Assembly (NCBI GenBank): GCA_041658625.1 | Contig: JBAZZW010000002.1 | Coordinates: forward strand, 538,851 to 602,850 | Reading direction: 5' to 3' | DNA from: Actinomycetota bacterium | GTDB lineage: Bacteria > Actinomycetota > JAHEXW01 | DNA length: 64,000 bases | Shown here: piece by piece, positions 3,737 to 59,355 of the stretch | Layout of the letters: each line of letters opens with the position of its first letter | How positions within the stretch are numbered: position 1 is the stretch's first letter | Made by a program: the position numbers and the translations under genes | Notes under the pieces: model-generated | What the model saw: only the letters and a program-made list of their open reading frames with translations | Database searches by the model: none | What the model was told of the DNA's origin: nothing

Positions 3737-3817
3737 AGTTAACATTAGTTGTCAATCGTTACCAGTTCTTAACAACTGTATTACCTCGTTAACACGAGTT
3801 AACATCAGTAACATCGG
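3737..3817. promoter_or_regulatory. cluster of GTTAACA direct repeats (three copies at 10-bp spacing) upstream of HTH-pilMNOP operon
   Basis: GTTAAC at 3738, 3788 and 3798, GTAACA at 3809, plus GTTACC/TTAACA variants; sits 55-135 bp upstream of the 3682 start codon. Confidence 0.35.
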
Positions 3818-4126
3818 GCAATGCAAGTGAACACTTTAGTGTTTTCTTGGTTTTTTTATGAGCATTGCGGGGACGCCATATTAGATAGTAAGAGCTAAAT
3901 TCTTTCCAGCGGCCGGTTACCGCTGACCGTTGTCTGATTATTCTTCTCTTAGAATATTCGACAGGGCTTCCGTTGGCTGCATGGTGGTTCTTGAATTGGT
4001 CTATAAAGCTTTCATTCGCACCTGGTAACCTTTGCATCCTTCGTCTTCGAGTTTAGGTTCGAGCATCCCTTTCAGTTTTCAGATGCGGAGGGCTCACAGT
4101 CTCTTCAAACTTGGCATATTGCCTGG

Positions 4127-4591
4127 TTAGCTGCCTGTTGGATAAACCTTTATCCGGCCGATGCTTGTGGTTCTGATTACCATAGAGCGCTTGTTGACGA
4201 GCGCAGAGAACAAAAGCGGCACCCGTGCCCGACTCTCCACCTCAACATATACTTCAGTGTTAACAACTTTGACGTCTAACAGCTCCGCACCGCACAAACC
4301 ATCCAGGTTCTTCTCTACCCATTCCATGGCATCTTCATCGGAGGCATAGTTGTTTCGCGACCCGGATTCCGCCGCCTCACGTAGATCGATTTCCTCAGCA
4401 ACCTCACGCGCCGCGACGTCACTTGCCTTATATAGTTCCGCCTTAGCCGCCATCACCCGCCCGGCATCAATGCTCCACCCCATAAACAACAAAACCACCG
4501 GCATTATCGCCACAATCAAAACCGTAATTGACCCTTCTTGTGGCTTATGTTCTAAGTTCGTTCTCTTTTTACATGCATCAATTATTTTCAT
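4127..4591 (-). CDS. TadE/TadG-like pilus assembly (pseudopilin-like) protein
   Basis: 154 aa; N-terminal GSITVLIVAIMPVVLLFMGWSIDAGR...AAREVA resembles the TadE-like N-terminal domain. Confidence 0.45.
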   Translation of the reverse strand: MKIIDACKKRTNLEHKPQEGSITVLIVAIMPVVLLFMGWSIDAGRVMAAKAELYKASDVAAREVAEEIDLREAAESGSRNNYASDEDAMEWVEKNLDGLCGAELLDVKVVNTEVYVEVESRARVPLLFSALVNKRSMVIRTTSIGRIKVYPTGS

Positions 4592-4610
4592 TTTACGTCC
4601 ATGATTTTAC

Positions 4611-4634
4611 GGACACATTCCCGGGAATGTGTCC
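4611..4634. promoter_or_regulatory. 24-bp perfect palindrome GGACACATTCCCGGGAATGTGTCC (copy 1), between arsR-like gene and TadE-like gene
   Basis: Read directly; identical to copy 2 at 5041..5064; candidate operator or RNA hairpin. Confidence 0.5.
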
Positions 4635-4639
4635 GTCGA

Positions 4640-5038
4640 CTAATGGAGATATTTCCTAAAGAGACTGCTAAGGTTGCCTAGCATCACGTCCGTGACCACC
4701 CGACTGTCTTTGTCTTCTATTTCTCTGTTAAAGGAGTGTATTACAAGAAATAGCAGCATTTCATTCCTTAACGACAATCTGACCTTGCGAACTCTATAAT
4801 AGATAAACGATCCCCTGTTTCTATAGGTAACAAATCCGGCTTTGTTCAGGTCGCTTAGATTCCGCGAAACTGTTTTAACAGGCCACCCGCCCCGAATGCT
4901 GATTTCACCAACAGTTAGCGGTCCTGTATTGTTGAGCATTTCAAGTATCTCCAAACGTTTTCTGAAGCCAAGGACTTTGAAAATATTCGCCAAATCATCA
5001 AGTTCGTTCTTCTTTGTCATTTTCTCCTTTGCAAACAT
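4640..5038 (-). CDS. ArsR/SmtB-family transcriptional regulator
   Basis: 132 aa; winged-HTH LEILEMLNNTGPLTVGEISIRGGWPVKTVSRNLSDLNKAGFV; alternative start at ATG 5020 with AGGAG RBS. Confidence 0.8.
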   Translation of the reverse strand: MFAKEKMTKKNELDDLANIFKVLGFRKRLEILEMLNNTGPLTVGEISIRGGWPVKTVSRNLSDLNKAGFVTYRNRGSFIYYRVRKVRLSLRNEMLLFLVIHSFNREIEDKDSRVVTDVMLGNLSSLFRKYLH

Positions 5039-5040
5039 CA

Positions 5041-5064
5041 GGACACATTCCCGGGAATGTGTCC
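5041..5064. promoter_or_regulatory. 24-bp perfect palindrome GGACACATTCCCGGGAATGTGTCC (copy 2), immediately upstream of arsR-like gene
   Basis: Read directly; exact duplicate of 4611..4634. Confidence 0.5.
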
Positions 5065-5070
5065 TTACTT

Positions 5071-5835
5071 TTAAAAACTTACACTTCCGGTGTCTTGGAG
5101 AGAACGTGCAAAAGGCAGTTCGGGGGCCTTCTGCCCGGTTTCATTTATGTTTACGCCACGGAATGAGTTAATCGGGATTTCAAAATAAACAGTTGCCGTT
5201 GAGCCGTCTATCGCGGTGATTTGGACATAGTGCGTGCCTTGACCGCCGAAATCATATTCGCCCCTGGCTGTTATGTTGTTTGATAGTTGCGGATCCGTGA
5301 ATTGTCCAGTCGCCAGCGTAACCGTGTAATGCGATCCGTTTCGATCCTGCCGCCCGACAACAGCGTACACTCGATAAGACTGGATTGGTTTGTTTGCGGA
5401 GAACGCGATATTTAGGTCTAGGTGGGCCGGTTCGTCATTTTGACTCTGCCGGCGCCCGTCTTCTGTTAAATAATGCCAGCGGGTAAAAACATACGGTGGC
5501 GACTTTGCCACAGAAACCGTCACCTGCAACGGTTCTGCCCAATACCCGCTGGCCGCCCACTCTTGATAGGTCTGCCAATATCCGCTTGCAACCCAGGTTG
5601 AATATGGCGCCCAAGCCCAGTAGCTTGTGTCCACCCACGTCCAGTAGCTCTTATCGTGCCATTGCCACCAAGCCCCGACCCAGCCGGCACCAGGGCAATA
5701 CACGTCGCTTCGATGCTTATGATACCCCCATGCATAAGCGAAATACATCGGCCCCCAATTCATGCCAATTAGGGAGTCATCCTGAGGAGCAGAAGAGATG
5801 ACTGGCGACGAGGGAACTCTCACGATTCTACTCAT
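5071..5835 (-). CDS. hypothetical protein with Trp/Tyr-rich repeats (SYW/GYW every ~8 residues) and a C-terminal beta-rich domain
   Basis: 254-aa longest ORF in the region; unusual composition; no family recognised. Confidence 0.4.
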   Translation of the reverse strand: MSRIVRVPSSPVISSAPQDDSLIGMNWGPMYFAYAWGYHKHRSDVYCPGAGWVGAWWQWHDKSYWTWVDTSYWAWAPYSTWVASGYWQTYQEWAASGYWAEPLQVTVSVAKSPPYVFTRWHYLTEDGRRQSQNDEPAHLDLNIAFSANKPIQSYRVYAVVGRQDRNGSHYTVTLATGQFTDPQLSNNITARGEYDFGGQGTHYVQITAIDGSTATVYFEIPINSFRGVNINETGQKAPELPFARSLQDTGSVSF

Positions 5836-6200
5836 TCAGCCACAATCGTGCCTTGAGAATCGCTGGACAGTGAGGCAATCGCTTATAGAATCATCCGAAT
5901 GCTTGCCGACAAGTTTAATCCGATGTTGGCTCCCCGGGTTGTATGTTTTTCGCACATTCCGAGCTTGCATAAGACAAACCGAGGTCGTCTTCGACGCATC
6001 TACGAAAAAGCATATCCTTAAAAATGCCAATTGCTGCTTCGTCAAAATACACGTTTTCACACCTTCTGCCCGATGCTGGGCAAGGAGGCAATAAAGAACT
6101 TGGACGCATTGATAAAAGAGAATAGCGAGAAATGCCTGGACGTTGCCTCATAGTAATTGGCTGCAAAATCGACAAACAGAACTTACATAATAATGCGAGG

Positions 6201-8945
6201 CTACTTGGGCGGTTTAGCTGCTTTCAGTCGTTGTACGGCCCACTCGTTTGAAAGATCAAGCGATTGGTTTAGCTCGAACGAGGTGTCAGCTCGTTTCTTC
6301 TCAGCATTTCGAACTTCTTTGACGGAATCGTAGAACTGTTTGCCAATCAGACGTTGTTTCTCAATTGGAATTACCGGTACTGGTATTGCTCCAAGATCAT
6401 CCCATTCAACGCGGTGTCTACTAATACCTGTGGATTGAGATAAAAGGCGGGCTCGGACTTCGGGGCTTCGAAGAAATCCCCATAAAAACCAAACATCGAA
6501 TCTTGCGTCCTTAAGTCGCATAATAGTAAACTCCGACGAGGCAATTACACCCGAGAGGTCAGCAGGAATCACGGCAATGGAACCGAGGGCAGCAGCAATG
6601 TTGCTTGCTACAATATCATTTTCTTTTGGGTTTTGAACTTTACTATATGTAAGTTCTTCTCCGAGCGCCTTATCGCCTTCCTCGGGGATTCCGTCATATC
6701 GAACACGCAGTAATGTGTTTAGTTTGCTAGGCTCGTTTTTCGGATTGAAGCCCTCATTTTCAATCTTGTCGACTATTGTGTGTAGGGGAACAACATTAAG
6801 GCCATCGGCACGCCATTTGTCAGAAATGTCATTTGGGCGGGGGAGACACGACTTAACATCAAGACGATCTCCAATAAGGCCGCTCCTGACCCGCCAAGGG
6901 CCCTTTATCCCCTGCATAAAAAGATTAAAAGCCTCAAAAAGGTCCCTAGTTTCGTCTTCAGCTGCGGTACGAGCTTCAGCTGCTTTACTAGGCCGTGTCT
7001 TCATGGGCACATCATCAAGGCCTACGTAGCGACATTCATACATAAAGGCATCCGGCTGACTTTGCTTTTTCGCGTCCCGCCGAATGAGGTATAGGACCGA
7101 TGTCTTTGCACGAGCTCCAACACGTTGAAATGCGTCCCCAGGGATACTGATTACGGCACGAACTATAAAGCGATCCCTTATAAAATCTCGTGCGAAACGA
7201 TTATTTGAGGAACTCAAGATTGAGTCGTCAATTACAGTTACGAGTTTACCGCCTGGCTTAAGAATGTCTGCATATCGTTCTAAGAACATAATGCTCGACT
7301 TTAATGATGGGCGTTGTCTATTTGTTTTCCCAAAGCCAAAGGTCCTTAGAGCGTACTGGTTGAGAATTAAAGCCTCGTCTGGCAGCGTCTCTGAGTAATC
7401 CATCGAGAATGGTGGATTTGTTAGAACGATATCGAAACCTCGTCTGCTTCCATTTGATATTTCGAAAATAAGTTTCTGAAGCTCTTCGAGCTCAAAACGC
7501 GATTGCTGATCATCTCCGACACCATGAGACACTGTCTTATCAAGGCTGTCCGCCGCATATATCCGGCTACCGCCGTCTCCATGGAGATACATGTTGATTC
7601 GTGAAATCTTTGCTAATGGTGGTTCTTTACCTGCATCAATGCCAAATATGGAATCGTTGGCGACCCTTTCTAACAAGGCGTTTTGTTCGCTGTCGCTCAG
7701 AGAAGTGTTAGATCGAATTTGATTCCGCATGTCGGTGAGGGCTTCAATAAGGAAGCCTCCTGAACCACAACAGGCATCAATTACATGGTCAATATGGTCT
7801 TTTGATGCAATTGGGGCAGCGAGTTGTTCCATCATTTTTACAATAGACCTGGGTGTAAAGTATTGCCCCAAGGCTTGTCCCCGCATGGTGGCACTTAAGA
7901 ACGTCTCAAACAAACGACCGTTAAGGTCCTCATCAATGCTGTACAAATCAAGTGATTCTAGTTTCGAGACAACTTGTCTGATTGTTCCTATCTGGAGTTC
8001 AATATGGTCATTTGGCCCAAATATCGGTTTCTTCTTTCCTCGGGCAACGTCCTCTCTAAGAACTTCATTAAGCCTGGCAAAAAGGGTCTCATCAACTGGA
8101 TTCTTTACCCCCTGTGACTGCAGAGCATCAATCCAATGCGTTGAGAAGATAACATTGTCCCGTGGTATTGGTTTCTCGTCTCGTAGTAAAGGCCCCATTA
8201 TGGGGTCATCGTGTAGTTTTCGATCCTCCCAAAGCTTTACGAACATTATTTTTACGAACTCAAAGAAAGCAGGTTGAGGATTCATCTTCTCAGCTTTCCA
8301 TATAAGTCTATGACAGCTGTTAAAAACCCTTTTGATCTCCTCAACAGAAGGCTTTTTCATTAGAAAGCGTGGCTTTTGTATCGAAGGCTTCAGGCCTTGC
8401 CTAATAGTAGTAGCCTGAAGTAACGAGCGTACCGAAAAGAAGCTTATGTTGTCATCAGCAAAGTCGGAAAATTCCAGGCTGATTATAGGCTTGCTCTCAT
8501 CCCATTTATAAAGGTCAAATGCGAGACCATTAGTTATTACGTAGTATGAACAGGGGTTTTGATTGCTAAACTCTTGATTAAGCCCTAACGCATATCCAGC
8601 ACCTTGAAAAGCCCACTTGTCGATATCTTCCCCTGGTGATTTTGCATCGATTAGCCACATAGGCTTCTCGTTACAGTAGATGACGTAATCTGGCCTATAG
8701 CCTTCTTTTTTTCTGCCTCTGGCTACAACAATCTCTTTAAGAGATACCTTTGGCCGGATTTCAGAGTCTTTGTAGCCGAGATCCTTTAGCAAACGATTTA
8801 TAAAGAATGTCTCGACTGAAGACTCATCAACTAAAACCGCTTTATCACAGTATTTGTTTGACTTCGCGTCCTTGCCAGCGCGACTCAAAGAGTCTAGGAG
8901 CGTAGGGCGAAGTAGGTCACTTTGCGGGGTTTTTGACTGTTTCAT
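6201..8945 (-). CDS. single-chain restriction-modification enzyme: PD-(D/E)xK nuclease + gamma-class N6-adenine methyltransferase + HsdS-like target-recognition domain (Type IIG-like)
   Basis: 914 aa; N-terminal RPDYVIYCNE...WLIDAKSPGE nuclease core; MTase motif I VIDACCGSGGFL then motif IV NPPF; C-terminal IPVPVIPIEKQRLI typical of HsdS TRD ends. Confidence 0.75.
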   Translation of the reverse strand: MKQSKTPQSDLLRPTLLDSLSRAGKDAKSNKYCDKAVLVDESSVETFFINRLLKDLGYKDSEIRPKVSLKEIVVARGRKKEGYRPDYVIYCNEKPMWLIDAKSPGEDIDKWAFQGAGYALGLNQEFSNQNPCSYYVITNGLAFDLYKWDESKPIISLEFSDFADDNISFFSVRSLLQATTIRQGLKPSIQKPRFLMKKPSVEEIKRVFNSCHRLIWKAEKMNPQPAFFEFVKIMFVKLWEDRKLHDDPIMGPLLRDEKPIPRDNVIFSTHWIDALQSQGVKNPVDETLFARLNEVLREDVARGKKKPIFGPNDHIELQIGTIRQVVSKLESLDLYSIDEDLNGRLFETFLSATMRGQALGQYFTPRSIVKMMEQLAAPIASKDHIDHVIDACCGSGGFLIEALTDMRNQIRSNTSLSDSEQNALLERVANDSIFGIDAGKEPPLAKISRINMYLHGDGGSRIYAADSLDKTVSHGVGDDQQSRFELEELQKLIFEISNGSRRGFDIVLTNPPFSMDYSETLPDEALILNQYALRTFGFGKTNRQRPSLKSSIMFLERYADILKPGGKLVTVIDDSILSSSNNRFARDFIRDRFIVRAVISIPGDAFQRVGARAKTSVLYLIRRDAKKQSQPDAFMYECRYVGLDDVPMKTRPSKAAEARTAAEDETRDLFEAFNLFMQGIKGPWRVRSGLIGDRLDVKSCLPRPNDISDKWRADGLNVVPLHTIVDKIENEGFNPKNEPSKLNTLLRVRYDGIPEEGDKALGEELTYSKVQNPKENDIVASNIAAALGSIAVIPADLSGVIASSEFTIMRLKDARFDVWFLWGFLRSPEVRARLLSQSTGISRHRVEWDDLGAIPVPVIPIEKQRLIGKQFYDSVKEVRNAEKKRADTSFELNQSLDLSNEWAVQRLKAAKPPK

Positions 8946-9354
8946 GTGTTCATTATCATTTGACGGAAGAACTGCGTCAAGGTTCGGCCAAACACTGTCC
9001 TATATAGCGGTCAAGTGACAGACAACTAGACAACCCATTGCTAGGCGCATTGTTCATAGAAAAGGTCAGCCAAGTAAGTTATTTAATTTCTATCTAATAA
9101 GCCATGGCAAAACCTCATCACTCTTCGGTAATCATAGAGAATGTTCGAAGACGCTCCGGCGGCCGCTGTCGCGTCACTGTAAAGTGTCAACAGAAACGGG
9201 GGAACTCCAACTCCAGTTTGTTGTTTATTGTAGCCGAGTGGGCTACGAGTCTTCTTCAAAAGAATATTCCATATACATAGCGTTTCCTCAGCTCTTGAGG
9301 TTTAGCACTTGAAAGTACATAATGAACCTAATCTTGTCTACTGGGGAGTTAATT

Positions 9355-11817
9355 ATGCCTTTGAAGATTAAGCTTAAGAATCAGTTTCGTGAGCCCCTCA
9401 ATACGGATGCGGGTTTCGTCGGTCGTGAAGACGAATTGGCGCGACTCATTACGATATTTCAGCAGAGGCAAGCCGCAACAGTCCTAGTCGCTGGACATCG
9501 AGGGGTAGGCAAGAGCGCACTGGTTGACGAGGCCTTAAAACGCTCGCAAGCCGACAAGAAAAAGCGCGTAGTTGCTCGATTGACGTTGCCCCATCTATCG
9601 CCCGGTAGTTCGGATATTCGAGATCAAATACTTCAATCGCTGGCGCGCTCGCTATATTTCTCTATCAAAGACGACAATAGCGTTCCAAAACCTCTTCGCG
9701 AAGTCAGCAAGGTTCTATATGATAAGACCTATTTGAAGGAACTACACGAGCAGACTGGGGTCGAGTCATTATTCGAAACCGAAGCTAAAGCCCGATCAGC
9801 GACAAAGACAAAGACTTCAATCGCTTTTGGCAAGATAGTTTCACTTATTGTCGGAACGTCGCTCTCTGGTGTGGTTGCTATCGGAGGAATCGCGGTTATT
9901 TCGAGAATCGTTACGGATCATGGCCTGAGTTGGGGAATAGTGGCTAGCGCTGTCGTGTTGGTTACGGTTGTGCTTTCAGCTTATCAACTTAATCTCGAAA
10001 AAGAGGATGAGAATACGACTATTGACAAGGCAACGGCTTCTAACAAGATAAACCGAATCGGTCTTTACGACGTATCTCCCGAGACCCTTGAATTTGAGCT
10101 TCGCGATCTTATAAAGGAGCTTGCAGCTAAAGGTCATCCTTGTGTCTTCGTGATTGACGAACTTGATAAGCTAGAGGCTTTTCCCAAAGGCGTTCAGCAG
10201 GACCCTGAAAGCGCTGGGCAGGATTTTAAAAAACACATCATATTCAGGATTTTGTCCAGTTTGAAAAACTTCTTTACATTGGGTTCTGGAATATTTGTGT
10301 TTATTTCAGGGGAAGATTTCTACGCCCAACTAAATGGACCCATTGAAACAGACATCTATTCGTTAGCTCATACCTTGTTCACTGATCAGGTTTTTGTTCA
10401 GGTTCTCTACTATCAGGACGTGGAGCGCTTGATTGAGCAGATTATTGCCGAAACGCCTGCGGACGAGGAGGAGTACCATCGCTTCAGGAACTATTTGTGT
10501 TGGCGCTCTCGAAATCATGTGTTTGATCTCTTATCACTCATCGGGGAATTTGTCAGATTTGATAATCGAGGCCAGCCATTTCTTTGGGGAGAGAAATCAG
10601 GAGCTCAGGACGGGCATTGGCATGAAGGCAATCTACCGACGAACTGGGAAGTTGCTGCTGCTCTGCAGAAAATAGTGGGGGCCGCTTATGATGAATCGGC
10701 GAGGCCGTCTGCTGGAGAGCAGCGTTTCAATCAAGCATTGTGGCTTACCCAACTGCGAACGGCCTATGATCTGTTCGCTGATATGCCCGTGAAGGTGCCA
10801 GAGGCTGGTTTTGAGTTGCCTGCTGCTTATGCCTGGGTAAAGAATCTAACGCCAAACGATCTTGATGACCTTGCTGGCGCAGTCGAGCGTCTGCTGGCTA
10901 AACTTGAGAGGTATGGTGCGGTAAGAGTAGTCTCGGAGACACTCACTCCCGAGACAGAAGGCCAGCCCGATGTCTCTGTGACTAGCTATACACTAGTTGA
11001 AAACCCACCTTATCCGCCCACGTCAGTCAACTCTGAAGTACAAAGAATCCCACTTGAGGATTATTATCTCGATATCGGGGCGAAAGCGGAGCACCTCGCA
11101 AAGAATCTATCCGTCTTGGGCATTGAGACACCGCAGTTATCCGATGAAATCAACGCTGTCGTCGATCTAATACTCGCAGTCAAGAACATTTCGCCACGAA
11201 ACACAGTACCGAGAAGCAGGGTCAAAGAAGGAATTAAACGAGCAGACGTTCTTGCCGAACAGATGGTCGAGACCGGCGTTAATGCAGTTATTACAAAATG
11301 GGCGGCGGATCACGGGATGCAGCTTAGTCAGGCACTTTCAGAAATTGAAAACAAAACTGGCACGCCCTGGCAAGACTCGCTTACCAGTGAGTTCCCAGAG
11401 TTTGTTGAGGCTTTGGACATAAGCGAGGTTGAATACTTCATCATCGGAGGTTCAACTTCCGAGAACCAGGTTTTAGTGCTGAATAATCGACGAGATCGTG
11501 ATTTGACGGCAGTAAGCGAGGCTTATTCAAAATCCTTGCCTGGTGAAAAGGGTCGCGATAGACGGAAACAACGTCTTCCGATAGTTGTAGTGAGCCAGTT
11601 GTCTCCCGGCAAAAATCCTCAGATTCCACGCGAAGTCGTTGAGGTTATCCAAGAAACCGAAGGTTGGTCTTTCTTCTCTGCCGTACTTGGACTTTTACCG
11701 AAAACGAAGAGAGTCAAAACGAATCTGGCAGGATGGACTGTCTTTTCTCTCGATCCTAGCTTGGATAATTTGGAAGACCTACCAGCTGAACTAGAAACGG
11801 TCTCATACATTACATAG
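9355..11817 (+). CDS. KAP-family-like P-loop NTPase with two TM helices inserted between Walker A and Walker B; ~550-aa uncharacterised C-terminal region
   Basis: Walker A VLVAGHRGVGKSAL (about 9484-9510), two hydrophobic helices (about 9814-9997), Walker B CVFVIDELDKLE (about 10135-10170). Start taken at ATG 9355 (GGGGAG RBS) rather than track start 9322. Confidence 0.65.
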   Translation: MPLKIKLKNQFREPLNTDAGFVGREDELARLITIFQQRQAATVLVAGHRGVGKSALVDEALKRSQADKKKRVVARLTLPHLSPGSSDIRDQILQSLARSLYFSIKDDNSVPKPLREVSKVLYDKTYLKELHEQTGVESLFETEAKARSATKTKTSIAFGKIVSLIVGTSLSGVVAIGGIAVISRIVTDHGLSWGIVASAVVLVTVVLSAYQLNLEKEDENTTIDKATASNKINRIGLYDVSPETLEFELRDLIKELAAKGHPCVFVIDELDKLEAFPKGVQQDPESAGQDFKKHIIFRILSSLKNFFTLGSGIFVFISGEDFYAQLNGPIETDIYSLAHTLFTDQVFVQVLYYQDVERLIEQIIAETPADEEEYHRFRNYLCWRSRNHVFDLLSLIGEFVRFDNRGQPFLWGEKSGAQDGHWHEGNLPTNWEVAAALQKIVGAAYDESARPSAGEQRFNQALWLTQLRTAYDLFADMPVKVPEAGFELPAAYAWVKNLTPNDLDDLAGAVERLLAKLERYGAVRVVSETLTPETEGQPDVSVTSYTLVENPPYPPTSVNSEVQRIPLEDYYLDIGAKAEHLAKNLSVLGIETPQLSDEINAVVDLILAVKNISPRNTVPRSRVKEGIKRADVLAEQMVETGVNAVITKWAADHGMQLSQALSEIENKTGTPWQDSLTSEFPEFVEALDISEVEYFIIGGSTSENQVLVLNNRRDRDLTAVSEAYSKSLPGEKGRDRRKQRLPIVVVSQLSPGKNPQIPREVVEVIQETEGWSFFSAVLGLLPKTKRVKTNLAGWTVFSLDPSLDNLEDLPAELETVSYIT

Positions 11818-11994
11818 CTATGTTGCCTAGCATTCTTACAACAGATTTCGAAACAGCAATGAAAACTATCGAGTGCATCTAATGTTCATCGAATAAGTCA
11901 CCGCAAAACTCCGCTACTCCTCGTTAATCACAGAGTACTCTCTTTAAAGACAATCCGCAGACAAGGACAGCCATCGGGTGATATAGTAATACAT

Positions 11995-12059
11995 TGTTGG
12001 TTGCGCTGGAGGGACTACGAATCCGTAGGTTGGAGGTTCGGCTCCTCTCGGGCGCGCCA
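11995..12059 (+). other. tRNA-like 3' fragment (T-arm-like GGAGG-TTCGGCT-CCTCT, acceptor-like CGGGCGC, G, CCA); no matching 5' acceptor strand
   Basis: Read directly; antisense ORF 11924..12130 translates to the RSRTSNLRIRSP-type peptide typical of tRNA-derived DNA. Possible degenerate tRNA or integration-site remnant. Confidence 0.25.
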
Positions 12060-12161
12060 CATCTCACCTGGGCAACAGATGATGATTTCTTTAATTGACA
12101 AGGTATTATCTGGGGCAATCTAATACTCATCTAATATTGATTGTCGCCGACAAGGAAGGCA

Positions 12162-13028
12162 ATGATATACAAAGGCTTGTACTCTCAGCGCAAGAAAATA
12201 AACCCTGATGAAGATGTTTTTTCATATTCGCTCCCTGCCCCAGTAAGAGCTGCAATATTTAATATTATTAAAAACACCAATCCGAATTGGTCATCTCACG
12301 GCAAAACCCGAAGGCCTTTAAAGGCCATTGTTAAGGATTTTTGTGAAAATCATTTATTTCACGGGATTACACCAAGAGCAGAAGACGCTTTTGCATCTGG
12401 GTACCAATACGCCGACCACCAACTTACCGATGACCTTAAGGCATGGATCCAAACGACTCCACAAGAATCTTTGTTTGATTTTATTGAAGTAGCAATTATT
12501 AATATGAGCGAGTCTAATTTAACGACGCTTGTTAAAGATATTAATGATTTGTTTCAAAGGGAAATGATTGGATTTGAGATTGTAAACGGAAACATTATTG
12601 ACAAGTCTGATGAATTCCTTCATCAAGAAGTTGTTCTGCAGCCAATTCTTGGGCTAAAAGCAGGAGGATTTGAAAAAGCCGAACAAGACTTCATGAAGGC
12701 ATTGCAGGAATATGCCCACAAAGATTATGCGGGAGCCCTTACAAGTGCTAATACTGCGCAGGAAAGCGTTATGAAGAGGATTCTTGGAGTCGAAAAAGGT
12801 GTGTCAAGTGATTTGGTTAAGACATTAGTTGAAAGGGGCATAATCCCTTCATATATGCAGAATAAAATGTTACTGCCCGTTTCGATAAGAAACAAAGATA
12901 GCGACGCACACGGCAGGCTTGATCCAATTGACGTCACGCCGGAACTAGCTCAATACGCGATTCATTGTGTCGGGGCTAATGTTGTGTTCTTGCTCAAAGT
13001 TACGAATATGGACGGCACCCAACAATAG
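12162..13028 (+). CDS. hypothetical protein with C-terminal HEPN-like Rx6H motif (candidate abortive-infection/RNase-type effector)
   Basis: ATG 12162 preceded by AAGGAAGG RBS (track start 12141 is TTG); C-terminal SIRNKDSDAHGRLD fits the HEPN Rx4-6H motif; AT-rich gene. Confidence 0.45.
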   Translation: MIYKGLYSQRKKINPDEDVFSYSLPAPVRAAIFNIIKNTNPNWSSHGKTRRPLKAIVKDFCENHLFHGITPRAEDAFASGYQYADHQLTDDLKAWIQTTPQESLFDFIEVAIINMSESNLTTLVKDINDLFQREMIGFEIVNGNIIDKSDEFLHQEVVLQPILGLKAGGFEKAEQDFMKALQEYAHKDYAGALTSANTAQESVMKRILGVEKGVSSDLVKTLVERGIIPSYMQNKMLLPVSIRNKDSDAHGRLDPIDVTPELAQYAIHCVGANVVFLLKVTNMDGTQQ

Positions 13029-13070
13029 CTGTTTATCGGTTTTGGGTTTCTCGTTTTTAGGAATAATTGC

Positions 13071-13118
13071 AACCAGACTCATAATCCGCGGCAAGTTCGA
13101 GTCCTGCTGTGTTCCCCA
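13071..13118 (+). other. second tRNA-like 3' fragment (CTCATAA loop-like segment, T-loop TTCGAGT, terminal CCCA); no 5' acceptor strand
   Basis: Read directly; GGCAAGTTCGAGTCCTGC resembles a T-arm; lies just downstream of the HEPN-motif gene. Confidence 0.25.
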
Positions 13119-13192
13119 AACAGGAGCTAATAAAAAGGCCGACTCCAATAAACAGACGTCTCTTCTCCTATTAGTTCATGTTTATCGCCTTG

Positions 13193-13591
13193 CTATTTCA
13201 AAGATCGCGCCCTTTGCGAGGCGACATATTCTTCTAGGTCGCTTTTCTGTACTCTCCACGACCCCGCTCCAGCGCCAATCCTGAAGCCTAGCAAGAGCTT
13301 CTTGTTTAGCATGTCGTAGACCTGCGCCTCAGAGAACCGCAACAGCTTGGCGACCTCGCTGACTGTCAGCAAACGATTAGGGTCAGCCATCTTGGCGGCT
13401 TCTTTTTCCGCCGCCTTTTCGTGATACTTTCTGGCGTCCTCGGCGTTAATGAACTTACGCCGGCCGAAGCGAGTGGTCCGGAATTCCCCGCGGCGCATCA
13501 TCTTGCGAACCGTGTTCGGCTCCATTTGTAAAATCTCCGCAACTTCCTCAACACTTATATATCCCGTTTTGTTAGACATATTCATGACCAC
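13193..13591 (-). CDS. DNA-binding protein with two tandem excisionase-type HTH domains
   Basis: 132 aa; YISVEEVAEILQMEPNTVRKMMRRGEF and LLTVSEVAKLLRFSEAQVYDMLNKK are both HTH_17-like. Confidence 0.6.
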   Translation of the reverse strand: MVMNMSNKTGYISVEEVAEILQMEPNTVRKMMRRGEFRTTRFGRRKFINAEDARKYHEKAAEKEAAKMADPNRLLTVSEVAKLLRFSEAQVYDMLNKKLLLGFRIGAGAGSWRVQKSDLEEYVASQRARSLK

Positions 13592-31516: not shown

Positions 31517-32482
31517 CTATTCCCTTCTTCCCTTGATGTTTGCTCTTGGATGCGTGCTCATGTATTCCTCTTTCAGGTGATCCTTGGCCACGTGCGTATA
31601 GACCTGCGTCGTCGAGATCGAGGCGTGGCCTAACATCTCCTGAACCGCGCGCAGGTCGGCGCCTCCTTTAAGCAGATGCGTAGCGAAACTGTGTCGCAGC
31701 GTATGTGGCGTCAACTCCGGAAACCCGGCTTTGCCTCCCTGATTCTTTATCGTCTTCCACATTGTCTGGCGGCTCAAGCCGCGCCCTTGTCTGTTCAGAA
31801 ACAGATGATCGTCGCGAGTCTTTCCGACGAGTTTTGGACGGCCGCTCATCAGGTATTTCTGCACCGCTCTGACCGCCGTTCCGCCGACCGGAACCAGACG
31901 TTCTTTTGAACCTTTGCCGAATACCCTCACGAACCCCTCTTCCGAGTCCAGGTCGCCCATTGTCAAGCCCGCCGCCTCGGAAACGCGTAAGCCGCTCGCG
32001 TACATAAGCTCCAGGATGGCCTTATCTCGCCAGCCCCGTGGCGTTTCCGGAAAGTCTCCGTCAAGCAGCTTGGCCACGTCCTCTATTGATAAAACCCTTG
32101 GCAGACGTTGGCTTTTTTTAACGTTAGCCACCGTTGCCATCGGATCGTTTGTTTGATAACCCTCTCTGACCAGGAACTTGAATAAGCCTCGGATAGCCGC
32201 GTGAGCCCTTCCGACCGACGCGGCGTTTAACGGAGTCCCTTCGGCCGTAAACGCTCCGTCGGCTAGTTCCCGGGAGTAGTCCAGGATATGCGTCTTAGTC
32301 ACGTCCGAGAAATCGGTTATGCCCGCGCGCCCCAACCAGCGCATGAAGTTATTCAAATCAAGGGCATACGCTGAGGCCGTATTCTTGGCCAGACCTTTCT
32401 CCACCGAAAGAAAATTAAGGTACTCTCCGGCTTGGGCGGCCAGCTCCGGCGGGACCGGCAATTCTTTATTTCTCCCGTCCAC
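31517..32482 (-). CDS. xerD: site-specific tyrosine recombinase XerD
   Basis: 321 aa; C-terminal HTLRHSFATHLL...LGHASISTTQVYTHV with catalytic Tyr; downstream of NUDIX gene as in Actinobacteria. Confidence 0.85.
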   Translation of the reverse strand: MDGRNKELPVPPELAAQAGEYLNFLSVEKGLAKNTASAYALDLNNFMRWLGRAGITDFSDVTKTHILDYSRELADGAFTAEGTPLNAASVGRAHAAIRGLFKFLVREGYQTNDPMATVANVKKSQRLPRVLSIEDVAKLLDGDFPETPRGWRDKAILELMYASGLRVSEAAGLTMGDLDSEEGFVRVFGKGSKERLVPVGGTAVRAVQKYLMSGRPKLVGKTRDDHLFLNRQGRGLSRQTMWKTIKNQGGKAGFPELTPHTLRHSFATHLLKGGADLRAVQEMLGHASISTTQVYTHVAKDHLKEEYMSTHPRANIKGRRE

Positions 32483-39294: not shown

Positions 39295-40413
39295 CTAGAT
39301 CCCCAAAAGCAATCTTATTTTCAATATTATGAGCCTTGTGAAATCACGCAGCGGCGGCGAACTCTGAACTATCAACAATAGCGTGAAGACAGCCGCCAGG
39401 ATAACCACCAACAGATAGGACGGCTTTACCGTCGCCCGATACAACTTGTTGACGCCCTTGGCGTCGACCAGCGCCGGCCCGATCCGCAACCGGACCAGGA
39501 ACGTACTGGCCATCCCCTTTCGACCTTTGTCCAGGAACTCAACCATATTGGCGTGGCTGCCGACCGCCACGATCAGTTCGGCCCCCTGCTCGTAGGCCAA
39601 CAGCATAGCTATGTCTTCGCTGGTGCCCGGACTCTTAAAAACCAGGTGAGTCAAACCCAGCGTCTCAAGACGCTTGACGCCCGGCGCTCTTCCGTCCGGA
39701 TATGCGTGCACGACAAGTTCTTTGGCGCTCCGCAGCGCTTTCTCGGTGACGCTGTCCATGTCGCCGATTACGACATCCGGGGTATAATTCGCGTCCAGCA
39801 GCGCGTCGGCTCCGCCGTCTACGCCGATAAGCACCGGTTTGAATTCACCTATATACGCCTTAAGCGTTTTTAAGTCCTCTTTGTAATCATAGCCGCGGGC
39901 GACGACCAAAGCGTGGCGGCCCCGAAAACCAACCTTTGTCTCGGGCACCAAAACGCCTTCGAAAAAATGTTTTTCCTTCTCGATGAATTCCAAAGTGTTT
40001 TGGGCAAACTTCTCAAGCTCGTTGCCCATATTGGCCTGGGCTGCCTCCATCGCTTCCTCGACTTTGGCTCTGGTCAGGATAACGCCCCGGCAGACCGCTT
40101 TATGGTTCAGGACGACCGTGTCCTTGCTTATTTGGACTATGTCGCCCTCCTTGATTTGCGACATAGCTTCCTTGCCGACGTTGTCCAGAAGGTATATCCC
40201 GGCGTCGGTCAGGATTAACGGGCCCAGGTTCGGATAACGGCCGCTGATACTCTTGGCCGCGTTCACAACGACGTCGACACGGCTGTCGACCAGACTTTCG
40301 GCTGTGACGCGATCGATGTCCTCATGATCGATAAAAGCGATATCCCCCGGCTTGAGACGCTTCACCAGGTTCTTGGTTTTCTTATCTAATTTCGCCGTCC
40401 CCTTGTACTTCAT
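39295..40413 (-). CDS. steA: putative cytokinetic ring protein SteA-like
   Basis: 372 aa; GDIAFIDHEDIDRVTAESLV...SISGRYPNLGP matches the SteA N-terminal region as I recall it; C-terminal TM helix. Confidence 0.6.
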   Translation of the reverse strand: MKYKGTAKLDKKTKNLVKRLKPGDIAFIDHEDIDRVTAESLVDSRVDVVVNAAKSISGRYPNLGPLILTDAGIYLLDNVGKEAMSQIKEGDIVQISKDTVVLNHKAVCRGVILTRAKVEEAMEAAQANMGNELEKFAQNTLEFIEKEKHFFEGVLVPETKVGFRGRHALVVARGYDYKEDLKTLKAYIGEFKPVLIGVDGGADALLDANYTPDVVIGDMDSVTEKALRSAKELVVHAYPDGRAPGVKRLETLGLTHLVFKSPGTSEDIAMLLAYEQGAELIVAVGSHANMVEFLDKGRKGMASTFLVRLRIGPALVDAKGVNKLYRATVKPSYLLVVILAAVFTLLLIVQSSPPLRDFTRLIILKIRLLLGI

Positions 40414-53745: not shown

Positions 53746-53845
53746 GTTTCACAGTATATTCACAAACGGTTCACGGGATATTCTTGTGAGCCCTTGATAA
53801 TGGGCATTAGAGGTAGCCAAGGCTACCCCGCCCATCAGACAAAAG

Positions 53846-53886
53846 AAAAAGAGCAGGATAACAGACCACCTGCTCTTTTTCTTTTA
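53846..53886 (+). terminator. rho-independent terminator candidate after UbiA-family gene
   Basis: AAAAAGAGCAGG / CCTGCTCTTTTT inverted repeat with 12-nt loop, followed by CTTTT. Confidence 0.5.
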
Positions 53887-53955
53887 GCTGAAACTCCTAC
53901 TATGATACAATCATTACAAACATTTCGACCTTACCCGAATATCGAGAGACGGCAA

Positions 53956-56172
53956 ATGCCAAAAGTCAGTATAGTCATAACGTGTCATAACCATGGACGG
54001 TTTTTACCATTTGCGATAAAGAGCGCGATCTCGCAGACATATAAGGACTTTGAAGTTATTGCCGTGGATGATGGGTCCACCGACAATACAGCCGCTGTTT
54101 TAGTGAAATATGAAAACGACCCGCGATTCACAATAATACACCAGGAAAGAAAAGGACCTGCGTCGGCTCGTAACCTCGCCATTGAGCAGGCAAACGGCGA
54201 TTTCATCCTGCCCCTGGACGCAGACGATATTATAGAAAAGAACATGCTCGAAGAAACCGTGCCGGTTCTGGAGAAGAATCCAGATCTTGGTGTTGCATAC
54301 ACCCAATGGAAGACTTTTGGCGATGTCATCAAATTGGTTTTGCCAATCGAGTACAACTTTTTGGTCCTCGCCTATCATGCCAACTTCATTCCCGGGTGCT
54401 CGCTTTATCGTAAACAAGCCTGGAAAGAAGCTGGCGGATACAACACTGATATGGAATATGGAGGTGAGGCCTGGGATCTATTTGTCAGAATGGGCGAAAA
54501 AGGTTGGTGTGGTGGGTTAGTGTCTAAGACACTATTAATGACTAGAATCCATTCAGAATCAATGCAGGGTTTATCTGACAAGCATAAACAAGACATAATC
54601 AACCAGGTTGTCGCGAATAACAAAGACGTATACTCAAAGAATGTCGAAGCGAAAGACTGGTTTGAGGCAAAGCAACTAGCCCGTGAAAACAGATATCCAT
54701 TTTCTGATGTACCAATACCCGAGCTTAACGATGTATTAATAAAAAACTTGGCTTGGCCGAAACCTGCGAGTGCTCCAAAGGTCAGCATTATTATCCCCTG
54801 TTATAACCAGGCCGACCTGCTTGATGAGGCAGTTAATAGCGCTCTATGCCAAACCTATCAGTCGTTTGAGATCGTGATCGTCAATGACGGCTCAACGGAT
54901 AACATTGGTGAAGCGCTAAAGAAACATGCAAATAATCCAAAAATACATATCATCAACCAGGAGAATCAAGGAGTGGCAAGTGCAAGAAACAATGCAATTC
55001 TGACAGCTGGGGGCGAGTATATTTTGCCTCTTGATGCCGACGATATGATTGAACCTACATACCTCGAAAAGACAGTTGCCTCCCTCGACGCAGAAGAAAA
55101 AGCTGGAATTGCGTATACATACATTAAGTTCTTTGGCAACGCAGAAAGAGAAATACAACAAATTGACTTTGATTTCATGGTTCTGGCCTATCATGGTAAT
55201 TTTATGACATGCACATCTTTGTTTAGAAAGACAGCCTGGGAAGATGCGGGTGGCTATAACCCAAACATGAGGTATGGATATGAAGATTGGGATCTATGGC
55301 TTGGAATTTCCGAACGGGGTTGGGGTGTTACATTTGTGAAGGAACCACTGATCCACTATCGCCAGACTGAAACATCCAGGTCTGATGAAGCACACAGACA
55401 TCTCCCTGAGCTATACCGCCAGCTGATTGCGAATCACCCTATCACGTACGCTCAACCTCTTGCCGAGAAGAAATGGCTACGCTTTGTGAAACAGGTTAGT
55501 GATGAGACGCGTTTTCCTATCGGAAATGCGACATCTCCATGTTTTCAGACCTATATAGATAACATCATTTTTGAACCAGTCGACAAGCCGGATGTAAGCG
55601 TCATCATCACTTGCGATCACCGTGCCAATACAATTATGGAGAGTGTCAGGAGCATCCTTTTCCAGGATTACCGCAGCTTCGAGATAATAATCGTTGATCT
55701 AGGAATAGCTGGAGACGCTAAGGGTGAGCTTGAAAAGCTAAAAGCAAATCCACGTGTTGCGATCATTGATGCGACTTTTTCGAGAGACTTGATATCATCT
55801 ACCAGCAAAGCAGTTTCAGGAGCGCGAGGTAAGTATATATTGATGCTGAGTAATGGTGATGTAGTACACAAAACATTGCTTAGTAAAGCAACGCGAGAGT
55901 TCAATAAAAGAACCAAACTAGGCATTGTCTATGCGAATGAACAAGAACGCAATGGAGAAGAGGCTGCAAGAAAAATCCAGTATAGCTACGCTGCCCTAAA
56001 GCGCCAAAATTATATTGGGCGACACGCAGTTTTTAGCAAGCATGCCTGGCTGGAAGCGGGCGGCTTTAAGAAGGAGACTCTGAATCCTGACATTCTATGG
56101 GGCCTATGGCTAAGAATGGGCGACCTTGGCTGGGCGGGGAAATTGATTGATGAACCCCTGGTGCTTCAATAA
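53956..56172 (+). CDS. multi-domain family 2 glycosyltransferase (three tandem GT-A domains)
   Basis: Start at ATG 53956 (MPKVSIVITCHNHGRFL), downstream of the terminator; GT2 signatures at SIVITCHN...VIAVDDGSTD, SIIIPCYN...IVIVNDGSTD and SVIITCDH...IIIVDLG. Confidence 0.8.
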   Translation: MPKVSIVITCHNHGRFLPFAIKSAISQTYKDFEVIAVDDGSTDNTAAVLVKYENDPRFTIIHQERKGPASARNLAIEQANGDFILPLDADDIIEKNMLEETVPVLEKNPDLGVAYTQWKTFGDVIKLVLPIEYNFLVLAYHANFIPGCSLYRKQAWKEAGGYNTDMEYGGEAWDLFVRMGEKGWCGGLVSKTLLMTRIHSESMQGLSDKHKQDIINQVVANNKDVYSKNVEAKDWFEAKQLARENRYPFSDVPIPELNDVLIKNLAWPKPASAPKVSIIIPCYNQADLLDEAVNSALCQTYQSFEIVIVNDGSTDNIGEALKKHANNPKIHIINQENQGVASARNNAILTAGGEYILPLDADDMIEPTYLEKTVASLDAEEKAGIAYTYIKFFGNAEREIQQIDFDFMVLAYHGNFMTCTSLFRKTAWEDAGGYNPNMRYGYEDWDLWLGISERGWGVTFVKEPLIHYRQTETSRSDEAHRHLPELYRQLIANHPITYAQPLAEKKWLRFVKQVSDETRFPIGNATSPCFQTYIDNIIFEPVDKPDVSVIITCDHRANTIMESVRSILFQDYRSFEIIIVDLGIAGDAKGELEKLKANPRVAIIDATFSRDLISSTSKAVSGARGKYILMLSNGDVVHKTLLSKATREFNKRTKLGIVYANEQERNGEEAARKIQYSYAALKRQNYIGRHAVFSKHAWLEAGGFKKETLNPDILWGLWLRMGDLGWAGKLIDEPLVLQ

Positions 56173-56175
56173 CTA

Positions 56176-56838
56176 TTACTTTCGTACTTTTCGTGCAACA
56201 ATGCAGGCTACAGCTTGGACATAGCCATTTGAAACAGAATCAATATCGAGCAAGTCTGTTTTTGTTGCCGGAATCCAGTGGAGCCTTTCTAGGCCTTTAA
56301 AATACTTTTCTTTTTCTATTGTGAATCCATCAAGCAACGATACCAGCGCTTCATCGTCATATACTCTATACCAACTTGATTGCATCCTTCTCCCAAACGG
56401 GATAGTCAGAATGAACATACCATCGTTTGTTAAAACTCGGCTTATCTCTTGAACTACCTTAAAGTCACCATTGCTAAGAGGCTCTTCTCCATAGGCGCCA
56501 AGTCCGCAGTGCTCAATTGCTGAAACTGCACTTACAACGTCGAAAGAACCGCTTTGAAAGGAGTCTTTCAGAAAATCGCCTTTTACGAATTCGAAGTTTG
56601 GATGCTTAAGATCGTAATCTGTTAAGTCAACTCCTACTACTCTATGCCCCAGACTTGCTAGTTCAATAGGAAGTCGGCTTCTAGCGCAACCAAAGTCAAG
56701 AATCCGCAATTCCTGATTGCTCGGAATATTTTGAAAAACGAATGGAATCTCGACAATTCTTTCATTTGTAAGAAGTTGATCTGAAGGACCATCGTAATAT
56801 ATTGACTCTTCAAAAAGGGATTTTAGGTCTTTATCCAT
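56176..56838 (-). CDS. class I SAM-dependent methyltransferase
   Basis: 220 aa; motif I ILDFGCARSRLPIELASLGHRVVGVD. Confidence 0.75.
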   Translation of the reverse strand: MDKDLKSLFEESIYYDGPSDQLLTNERIVEIPFVFQNIPSNQELRILDFGCARSRLPIELASLGHRVVGVDLTDYDLKHPNFEFVKGDFLKDSFQSGSFDVVSAVSAIEHCGLGAYGEEPLSNGDFKVVQEISRVLTNDGMFILTIPFGRRMQSSWYRVYDDEALVSLLDGFTIEKEKYFKGLERLHWIPATKTDLLDIDSVSNGYVQAVACIVARKVRK

Positions 56839-56958
56839 GCTCCAAACTTAATATAGCAAACAGTGGCTGTCAACATAGCTTGTAAGAAATGTTACTTTTA
56901 TGGATAATTGAAAGTAATTTCATGTCAGCGCGTTGATCTCTTTATTTGGGTATGTTCA

Positions 56959-59355
56959 ATGACGAGAAAAGGAAAAAAGAGGCTAAATCTTGGGTGTGGG
57001 CCGGATATCAGAGAGGGCTTTATAAATGTTGACGCACGGTCACTTCCCGGCGTCGATCTAGTTTCTGATGTAAGGAAGCTGCCTTTCCCTAAATCAAGTA
57101 TTTCGGAAATTGTCGCTATCGATGTACTTGAACATTTGTCTAGACTTGAAGCGCCTGAGGCGCTTAGATATTGGGTTTCACTTCTAACCAAAGAAGGATC
57201 GATCTTTGTTCAATCACCAGATATCCGATTGCTAGCAGAGGTTATTGAAGATGACGATGAGCTTTCGCGAAGACTATACGGGGATCAGGATTATCCCGAG
57301 AATCTCCATAAAAGTGGGTTCACTTTATCGCGTCTTAGGGAATTATTAGAAGCTGAAGGCTTGAAGATCGTAAAAGGAACTTATATTAATGGGAATTTTA
57401 GAATTTGGGCTACCTATCCACGCTCAAGAATAAAAAAATGTCTTTGTCTCGGCAAAACCGATCCATACCCATCAGGTCAGATTCCAGATGAAACGCTAAT
57501 AGTTGAAGGACTAAAAGATAATGGGATCGATGTTGATTTCTATGATTATAAAGATTTCGACCCAGAATTAACTGATATCTACGATTTTGCACTACTAATT
57601 TATCATTACGACATTCCTCTTCAAGGGTATCGTTATCTTCTGGATCAAGTCGTTGCTGACAAGACCGCACTAATGACATTTGACTGGGTTCTATCTGAGG
57701 CGAGAAGAACTGGGTTTCTAGAGGTGGCGAGACTCTTCGACATTGTTTTTACAACAGACGATGTTGTTGACTGGCGTTCCTTGGGAGTGAACCAGGCAAC
57801 AATTCGACAAGGAGTTAGTTCACCTCATAAGCGCGGTCACAAGAGAAACGATCTCGATTTTGATATAGCGTTCATCGGCGGCCTAAATGACTCAAGCAGG
57901 GTTGAAAACCTTAGAACGATTATGAAGAAATATAAGGTCGCTCATTTTGATAATCAGGTAAATCAAGAATTTAGTTCCATCTATATGGGGCCTGCTCACA
58001 ATGAAAGGTTCTGTGATATATGCAGTTCAGCAAAAATCATTCTGGGCGGCGGTTTCCCTGAAACTACGAAGGGTTACTGGTCAAATCGTGTTTACATGGT
58101 CCTTGGATGTGGGGGATTCTTCCTTTCGCCATATGTTGAAGGTATGGAGAGCGAATTTGAAGATAAAAAGCACCTGGTTTTTTTTCGCTCAGAATCTGAA
58201 CTAGAAAAGAATGTTCAGTACTATCTAAAGAATGATGCCGAAAGGGAAAACATAGCTAGAAACGGAAGAGCGCTTGTGCATCAAGAGTATTCATACAAAA
58301 AGCGAACTAGAAGTTTGGTTAAAGAGATAAACGAAATGCGGCGCAAAATCGGTCTTGTGTCATACACTGAACGACAAAGCGGATTAGGCATTATGGCAAA
58401 TGAGCTAGTTGACAGCTTGAATATAACAAACATCCTATCGATAGACTCTGCCAAGGGGAAACGAGAAACTTGGAGAGAAAACCAAGTTAATGCCAACAAT
58501 CCACCGGATCAAGAATCCATATTTGAGTTTTTGTCACAGAATTTTAAGGTCCTACTCTTGCTGGAGACGCCGTTTAATCAACATATTCCGTATGTGGCAA
58601 AAAAAGCAGGCAAAAAGGTAGTCTGCTATGTTCACCATGAGTGGTTGCCACTAGATGCACCGTGGCTGCAATACGTTGATCTATTCTTGTGTCCAAATAG
58701 TATTGCCGAAGAGAAAATGAATAGTTATGTAAGAAAACAAGTCAATTGGCCAATCAATCTTTCCCAATATGAGTTTAAAAAAAGAGAGGGTCATGTCTTT
58801 ATACATAATGCTGGATATATTGGACCCTTTAATAGAAAAGGAACAGCTGATGTAATACAAGCTTTCTGTGCATCAAAGGCAGGAAAGCTGATTCTAAGAA
58901 GCCAAATCCCTCTAGAACAAGAGATTGATTTGGATCTTGTAAAAATGGCAAGAGATGATAGTCGTATAGATATCAGAATTGGCGCGCTTGATAACTATCA
59001 GGACTTGTTTAGCGAAGGTGACATTGCGTTACAGCCTAGCCGTTTTGAAGGATATGGGAGAGCAATAGCTGAGGCTATGGCTTCAGGCTTGGTAGTTGTA
59101 ACAACAGATGCTCCACCCATGAAGGACTTTGTCGGAGATTCTAAGCTTCTAGTCAAAGTGTCTTCAGAACAACCATTAAGATCCGGCCCATTTGACGCTA
59201 TATCATATGTACCAGACATAGATTCGATGACAGAGATAATTGATTCTTTGTCAAGATCAAGTGATATTGGAAAGTTTAGTCTCGAGGCCAGAGAGAGAAT
59301 TGAGTCAGGATATAGCCGGTGGGACAAAATAATTGAAATACTACAAAATGTCTAG
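56959..59355 (+). CDS. fusion protein: N-terminal SAM-dependent methyltransferase + central and C-terminal glycosyltransferase (GT1/GT4-like) domains
   Basis: Start at ATG 56959 (MTRKGKKRLNLGCGPD); MTase motif LNLGCGPD...AIDVLEHL; C-terminal EGYGRAIAEAMASGLVVVTTD typical of GT4. Confidence 0.7.
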   Translation: MTRKGKKRLNLGCGPDIREGFINVDARSLPGVDLVSDVRKLPFPKSSISEIVAIDVLEHLSRLEAPEALRYWVSLLTKEGSIFVQSPDIRLLAEVIEDDDELSRRLYGDQDYPENLHKSGFTLSRLRELLEAEGLKIVKGTYINGNFRIWATYPRSRIKKCLCLGKTDPYPSGQIPDETLIVEGLKDNGIDVDFYDYKDFDPELTDIYDFALLIYHYDIPLQGYRYLLDQVVADKTALMTFDWVLSEARRTGFLEVARLFDIVFTTDDVVDWRSLGVNQATIRQGVSSPHKRGHKRNDLDFDIAFIGGLNDSSRVENLRTIMKKYKVAHFDNQVNQEFSSIYMGPAHNERFCDICSSAKIILGGGFPETTKGYWSNRVYMVLGCGGFFLSPYVEGMESEFEDKKHLVFFRSESELEKNVQYYLKNDAERENIARNGRALVHQEYSYKKRTRSLVKEINEMRRKIGLVSYTERQSGLGIMANELVDSLNITNILSIDSAKGKRETWRENQVNANNPPDQESIFEFLSQNFKVLLLLETPFNQHIPYVAKKAGKKVVCYVHHEWLPLDAPWLQYVDLFLCPNSIAEEKMNSYVRKQVNWPINLSQYEFKKREGHVFIHNAGYIGPFNRKGTADVIQAFCASKAGKLILRSQIPLEQEIDLDLVKMARDDSRIDIRIGALDNYQDLFSEGDIALQPSRFEGYGRAIAEAMASGLVVVTTDAPPMKDFVGDSKLLVKVSSEQPLRSGPFDAISYVPDIDSMTEIIDSLSRSSDIGKFSLEARERIESGYSRWDKIIEILQNV

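Follow-up and report, generated by a model that had tools for sequence, protein, structure and literature searches.

An orphan 3' copy of a tRNA-Arg(ACG) gene, most likely a relic attachment site, in a defence hot spot of an uncultured Actinomycetota lineage

Islands that carry tyrosine integrases enter tRNA genes; sequence brought in by the island regenerates the gene, and the displaced fragment marks the island's other end (PMC4383910). A 3' fragment accompanies 3760 of the 3919 islands in Islander, the site is anticodon-centred in 2083 of the 3919, and tandem arrays of islands hold one fragment per member (PMC4383910). The feature described here is most likely of this known kind and involves no new principle. 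It lies at 12012-12059 (+) of a 64-kb window (the whole stretch of DNA that was analysed) and is a 48-nt partial copy of a tRNA-Arg(ACG) gene, positions 29-76, spanning the last 3 nt of the 5' anticodon-stem strand through to the encoded CCA. The letters of 11995-12059 (+) are TGTTGGTTGCGCTGGAGGGACTACGAATCCGTAGGTTGGAGGTTCGGCTCCTCTCGGGCGCGCCA, and the stretch divides as follows:

11995-12011 (+): stretch of 17 nt upstream of the fragment, not tRNA-derived (no homology upstream of 12012 in alignments)
12012-12059 (+): tRNA-Arg(ACG) copy, an att-core-like identity block (47/48 identity to the intact gene of locus L045; 83-85% to plasmid and phage tRNA-Arg)
12015-12021 (+): anticodon loop CTACGAA, 7 nt, with middle triplet ACG = Arg (sequence; alignment to ARAGORN-called tRNA-Arg(acg) genes)
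12032-12048 (+): T-arm GGAGG-TTCGGCT-CCTCT (sequence and alignment), in which G12041 is the sole mismatch to the intact gene
12049-12055 (+): 3' acceptor strand CGGGCGC (sequence and alignment)
12056 (+): discriminator G (sequence and alignment)
12057-12059 (+): encoded CCA (sequence and alignment)

Between the anticodon loop and the T-arm stand the 3' anticodon-stem strand (TCCGT) and the variable loop (AGGTT, 5 nt), and every part from the anticodon loop to the CCA, with the variable loop, T-arm and acceptor strand included, is in register with tRNA-Arg in the alignments. A sequence-only reading of this DNA had listed a T-arm-like stem-loop, a 7-nt acceptor-like strand, a discriminator and CCA, all of which are present at 12032-12059; its list was right but left out the anticodon loop, the 3' anticodon-stem strand and the variable loop, and its span of 11995-12059 contained the tRNA-derived block but began 17 nt too far upstream. 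Alignment to ARAGORN-confirmed tRNA-Arg(acg) genes found no homology upstream of about 12012, and in blastn against plasmid and phage records the matches, to tRNA-Arg genes with 83-85% identity over 47-50 nt, were confined to window 12013-12059/62. A 28-mer of the fragment occurs once in the window (0 expected). The loose pattern of a T-arm plus CCA is not rare in the window (5 occurrences vs. 1.2 expected), which would favour a chance resemblance of the block to a tRNA 3' half; the probability of this is negligible, as it is excluded by the agreement of 47 of 48 nt, encoded CCA included, with a real tRNA-Arg gene (E = 4e-20 by local alignment) and by the register of all parts.

ARAGORN calls no intact tRNA or tmRNA in the whole 64-kb window; Rfam gives no match in the window at gathering score and no tRNA-like match at E <= 10 in 11700-12500. 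On 11975-12075 (101 nt) the Rfam tRNA model RF00005 stops at 11.0 bits, short of its threshold of 29, and the fit requires deletion of the D arm and of the 5' anticodon-stem strand; in it, Infernal takes GCGCTGG (12003-12009) as a pseudo 5' acceptor strand with one mismatch. Six of seven pairs with the acceptor strand are possible for this 7-mer, with one G-U, and by our own arithmetic about one such 7-mer is expected by chance per 90 nt. A mini-tRNA with GCGCTGG as its 5' acceptor strand was rejected on this chance-level match, the absence of a D arm and the Infernal score. A functional tRNA gene was rejected on the ARAGORN, gathering-score and RF00005 results, and a tmRNA, including a permuted two-piece one, because neither ARAGORN nor Rfam (at gathering score or at E <= 10) finds one. 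The earlier reading was correct that the 5' half is absent, since upstream there is only the chance-level complement and no D arm; its statement that no complementary 5' acceptor strand lies within 90 nt has to be amended for the partial 6/7 complement at 12003-12009. Its alternative of an unusual tRNA is contradicted by ARAGORN and the Rfam covariance models, neither of which calls an intact tRNA at the fragment.

A degenerate-pattern scan of metagenomes returned four loci, three with an intact tRNA-Arg(ACG) gene called by ARAGORN and a fourth that runs off the end of its locus. The gene that matches the block lies on contig Ga0265292_1000002 (968,577 bp), at L045 3885-3960 on the minus strand. 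The source tRNA is tRNA-Arg because of the ACG anticodon loop and the near-complete identity to this gene. The remaining tRNA-Arg(ACG) genes from the scan have several differing positions and no CCA; the match of the fragment to L045 is therefore lineage-specific. At the single mismatch, T-loop position 58, the window has G12041 where the L045 gene has A (A58G). T-loop A58 is conserved in most tRNAs, and its change here fits a lack of selection on the block.

Composition and accession numbers both place L045 close to the window. L045 has a GC content of 0.536, and the tetranucleotide correlation between its contig and the host part of the window (13.6-53 kb) is r = 0.96, compared with 0.935 for two halves of the window host part, 0.88-0.90 for the family-level relatives L006 and L007, and 0.27 for the island. 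By exact-sequence look-up, the L045 proteins are GenBank MFA5866812-MFA5866823, and Memo and YraN of the window are MFA5867820 and MFA5867823; the proteins of both are named 'MAG: ... [Actinomycetota bacterium]', and the window's contig is 611,753 bp long. Such a distance, about 1000 protein accessions, is compatible with two contigs from a single MAG. It is well supported, though not proven, that L045 is the same genome as the window or a very close relative, the support coming from composition and accession proximity and not from a closed assembly. The block is thus nearly identical to an intact tRNA gene of what we infer to be its own genome. The att remnant that the sequence-only reading had raised as a possibility, with an intact tRNA sharing the 3' end elsewhere in the genome, is supported by this gene, on a contig that is very probably of the same MAG, and by the anticodon-centred extent of the block.

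At its native locus in L045, the tRNA-Arg gene is accompanied by SerRS, four tRNA-Ser genes, TadA and a small four-helix-bundle-type ORF; the locus is apparently unoccupied, with no island, and neither flank of the fragment matches the native flanks. As a separate observation, tadA, for the tRNA adenosine(34) deaminase, lies at L045 2192-2638, about 1.2 kb from tRNA-Arg(ACG), its substrate, and the four tRNA-Ser genes lie between and around the two.

The extent of the block is that of a described class. It runs from position 29, within the anticodon stem, as far as CCA, as in Islander class A; a start in the anticodon stem with a run to the 3' end fits the anticodon-centred class (PMC4383910). 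As in the anticodon-centred 'A' sublocation fragments of Islander and Williams 2002, the block is the 3' part of the tRNA from the anticodon stem onward (PMC4383910), and like displaced 3' tDNA fragments and attP blocks it is near-identical to a host gene, lies in low-GC acquired DNA and has a tRNA strand sense. Most likely, then, the fragment represents the identity block of an attachment site that targets a tRNA and belongs to the anticodon-centred class. A similar piece is found in Pseudomonas phage Dolphis (L043, MT711888.1), where 40280-40326 is an unannotated 47-nt 3' piece of tRNA-Arg(ACG) with no 5' half. It shares with the window block the tRNA species, the extent (GACTACGAA... to ...GGGCGCGCCA, about 47 nt) and the lack of an ARAGORN call. 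The Dolphis piece differs in lying in a complete phage genome, presumably beside the integration module, and is only 83% identical to the window block because it matches the tRNA of a different host. It is probably the core of the phage attP.

The fragment lies inside a low-GC stretch (0.40-0.48 vs. 0.51-0.57 for host DNA) with the pilMNO operon on one side and the Memo/DprA/ComM/YraN genes on the other. The edges of the variable cargo were set by comparison with L005 (JBBAAE010000029.1), a relative with a 95% identical Memo protein and 85% nucleotide identity. Homology to L005 by blastn stops at window 13227 and resumes at 5877, with different cargo between (L005 1281-7743: a DUF3800 protein, a PglX-like methyltransferase and a KAP/PifA-like NTPase). 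L005 is labelled Candidatus Paceibacterota in spite of this similarity to an Actinomycetota locus, and its contig is probably mis-binned. The features of the window locus are as follows:

5071-5835 (-): left flank, conserved; 254-aa protein with no family match (L005 comparison)
5878-13226 (no strand): variable low-GC defence cargo, 7.3 kb (blastn to L005; GC; tetranucleotide r = 0.27 to host)
6201-8945 (-): restriction-modification (RM) enzyme, type IIG-like, with N6-adenine methyltransferase domain (Pfam N6_Mtase, Eco57I, HSDR_N; PADLOC MTase, REase_MTase_IIG)
9355-11817 (+): AAA_16/STAND-type ATPase, 820 aa, directly upstream of the fragment (homologs adjoin RM operons)
12162-13028 (+): AbiJ_NTD4 + Abi_C (abortive-infection-like) gene, the first 3' of the fragment (lowest GC of the island, 0.40)
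13193-13591 (-): right flank, conserved; double HTH_17 (excisionase-family) DNA-binding protein (family match and L005 comparison)

Both flanking genes are also kept in L006 and L007, about 5 kb apart; the locus is a defence hot spot with cargo that differs between relatives. The fragment, 1.17 kb from the right edge of the cargo, is not present in L005, and a scan of contigs with the Memo protein found no tRNA at the Memo-anchored locus in relatives. A resident tRNA-Arg gene that was destroyed in place is ruled out, as no relative has a tRNA at the locus. An identical locus occurs in ENA ERZ27247322 and ERZ27249422, JGI 3300028032, and Logan SRR8449812 and SRR8449827; the fragment is unchanged in copies L001-L003, and all copies examined are identical. 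Two genes of the locus also show similarity to the methylation-associated defence system (MADS), the double HTH_17 protein (13193-13591, -) matching MAD1 weakly and the methyltransferase-containing enzyme (6201-8945, -) matching mad2, in each case partially or below the NCBIfam cut-off.

Two modules meet at the fragment. Homologs of the ATPase (L055-L058, next to P0005-P0007) consistently stand directly after type I or type III RM operons, which suggests that the 820-aa AAA_16/STAND homologs are an RM-associated accessory ATPase family; since they adjoin RM operons, the RM enzyme and the ATPase form one module. GC steps from 0.476 in this left module to 0.404 in the AbiJ-like gene, a distinctly lower value, and the fragment thus marks the junction of two separately acquired modules. 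A breakpoint exactly at the junction of modules that differ in GC would also suit a truncated pseudogene, what is left at the 3' end of a second tRNA-Arg gene that was once intact on the island and lost its 5' 28 nt on insertion of the RM/ATPase module or by deletion. Phages and mobile elements often carry tRNA genes, examples being the plasmid and phage tRNA-Arg matches above, and A58G suggests that the block is not under tRNA selection now. However, the tRNA of a low-GC foreign cargo would not be expected to match the host tRNA-Arg at all but one of 48 positions, a breakpoint at position 29 is that of the anticodon-centred att class and of the partial copy in Dolphis, and no trace of a D arm or 5' acceptor strand was found upstream. 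We consider such a truncation, by either route, unlikely, and favour an origin of the block as an attachment site.

The position of the block relative to the AbiJ-like gene has a parallel at a tRNA gene. In L049 (ENA ERZ23486233), an element at 3740-9067 with a tyrosine integrase, HTH_17, a small-terminase-like Terminase_4 and an AbiJ homolog lies at the tRNA-Ala(TGC) 3' end and is similar in gene content to a phage satellite. As in the window, an AbiJ_NTD4 + Abi_C gene comes first beside the 3' end of a tRNA-derived att, within about 100-150 nt. The L049 element differs in that its tRNA is intact and is tRNA-Ala, not Arg, and in that an integrase is present; its AbiJ gene converges on the tRNA, whereas the AbiJ-like gene of the window follows the fragment on the same strand. 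The AbiJ homolog (P0002, 49% identical) is the last gene of the integrase-bearing element adjoining the tRNA-Ala 3' end, and this att-proximal position indicates that the gene family does travel at such ends of tRNA-integrating elements.

The same proximity could reflect function, with the block acting as a tRNA-like RNA (a decoy, an antitoxin or a processing signal) together with the AbiJ-like (HEPN-type) gene or the ATPase gene. The block shares its strand with both neighbour genes and precedes the AbiJ-like gene by about 100 nt, a sigma-70-like match (CAGACA, 18 nt, TG-TATAGT) at 11958-11987 (+) ends 7 nt before 11995, and a 68-nt stretch folds at -31.4 kcal/mol (z = -3.0 vs. shuffles). Promoter-like matches in the region are, however, at chance level (4 vs. 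3.1 expected), the inherited T-arm and GC-rich acceptor strand would by themselves give such fold stability, and the conserved T-loop A58 is mutated. No fragment lies beside two AbiJ homologs of about 50% identity (P0002, P0003) or three ATPase homologs (P0005-P0007), there is no Rfam match, and the copies are all identical, so that covariation lends no support. With respect to type III toxin-antitoxin RNAs and defence ncRNAs, the block is a single copy with no tandem repeat and no terminator-like site on its 3' side. A functional RNA is accordingly a very improbable account of the block, well behind truncation and further still behind a relic attachment site.

Integrase and partner sites were sought around the block. 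Pfam identifies no integrase among the sizeable ORFs of 1.7-14.5 kb, and none was found in the island (3.5-13.6 kb); tblastn with a tyrosine integrase query matched only 31589-32218 in the window, which is 19 kb from the island and encodes XerD, a housekeeping protein, above the NCBIfam cut-off. There is no second copy of the fragment, copy of the anticodon-loop core, direct repeat or 5' half within the 64-kb window, and the exact 28-mer has 0 matches in IMG/VR viral contigs. A canonical tRNA-integrated island in the sense of Islander (PMC4383910) contains an integrase and is bounded by tDNA and fragment, which share one replicon and are correctly oriented to each other; the window island is without the former, and the window has no tRNA, the cognate tRNA being on another contig. 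The locus thus departs from the displaced tDNA fragments of tyrosine-integrase islands in four respects: its island is without an integrase; the intact tRNA is not adjacent but, judged by accession, about 1000 genes distant on a different contig; the block is foreign on both flanks (P-O-P'-like) instead of separating an island from a native tRNA flank; and the defence hot spot that holds it is not at a tRNA gene. The fragment is an orphan scar, not the boundary of a currently definable tRNA-integrated island.

A hot spot with a tRNA-type block at a module junction, and with cargo that differs between close relatives, might alternatively have grown with the help of that block, were it still usable as a secondary attachment site (a pseudo-attB or landing pad) for integrases that target tRNA-Arg(ACG). 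The whole of the block from the anticodon stem-loop to the 3' end is kept, and its one change is far from the anticodon-loop crossover region. Yet L005 has different cargo without the block, and turnover there is explained by the conserved flanks alone; neither an integrase nor an excised form was observed, and with just 3 nt of the 5' stem strand a symmetric core may be incomplete. Continued use as an attachment site is therefore a slim prospect, somewhat below that of a truncated gene.

Just past the stop codon of the AbiJ gene there may be a second tRNA-like piece, to be listed as follows:

13070-13118 (+): possible second degenerate tRNA-like 3' piece with a CAT anticodon-like loop, GTTCGAGTCC, ...CCA (weak, uncertain)

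This stretch has a CTCATAA loop, a T-arm GCAAG-TTCGAGT-CCTGC with one mismatch, and TGTGTTC-C-CCA; between loop and T-arm it is short by 4 nt. The right edge of the variable cargo is about 110 nt further on, and the AbiJ gene is thereby bracketed by two same-strand tRNA-like 3' pieces. Its blastn match to phage tRNA-Met has E = 0.2, it goes undetected by the Rfam tRNA model, and loose patterns of this type are not rare in the window; we regard a second, Met-like fragment as a weak proposal. Elsewhere in the window, a perfect 24-nt palindrome, GGACACATTCCCGGGAATGTGTCC, occurs twice (4611-4634 and 5041-5064) and brackets an ArsR-type HTH gene at 4640-5038; its copies may be operators or terminators of this regulator. 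A second low-GC stretch (0.40-0.44) at 53794-59355 encodes large multi-domain glycosyltransferases as well as methyltransferases and is probably a variable cell-surface polysaccharide cluster.

Taken together, the block can with good confidence be read as a relic att copy, orphaned and probably inert today, of an element whose target was the tRNA-Arg(ACG) of the lineage. Tyrosine-integrase elements have the 3' part of the target tRNA gene in their attP; on integration the tRNA is rebuilt, and a displaced 3' fragment stays behind at the distal end of the element or, in a tandem array, between neighbouring elements. The arrangement of the block, with foreign DNA on both sides, is that of P-O-P', as in attP or at an island-island junction, and the block sits exactly between two compositionally distinct modules, RM and ATPase to the left and AbiJ-like to the right. 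A site-specific integration or accretion event is likely to have created the block, which would then have reached its present locus together with its cargo and is now probably inert. The absence of an integrase from the island, the absence of a tRNA or second copy from the 64 kb and the apparently unoccupied native locus in L045 count against this explanation.

It is a long shot that the orphan block serves as a working extra attachment site or as a tRNA-mimicking RNA used by the AbiJ-like defence gene; if either were true, a stretch derived from a tRNA, but not located at a tRNA gene, would promote the accumulation of defence genes at this hot spot or would itself have a part in defence. For annotation, the fragment should not be called a tRNA gene. 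It marks horizontally acquired DNA and identifies tRNA-Arg(ACG) as a gene that integrative elements target in this uncultured Actinomycetota lineage. It also shows that leftover attachment sequences of the tRNA type can occur in the defence cargo of a hot spot outside tRNA genes, and it gives a slight hint that some of this cargo, if not all, passed through a tRNA-integrating element.
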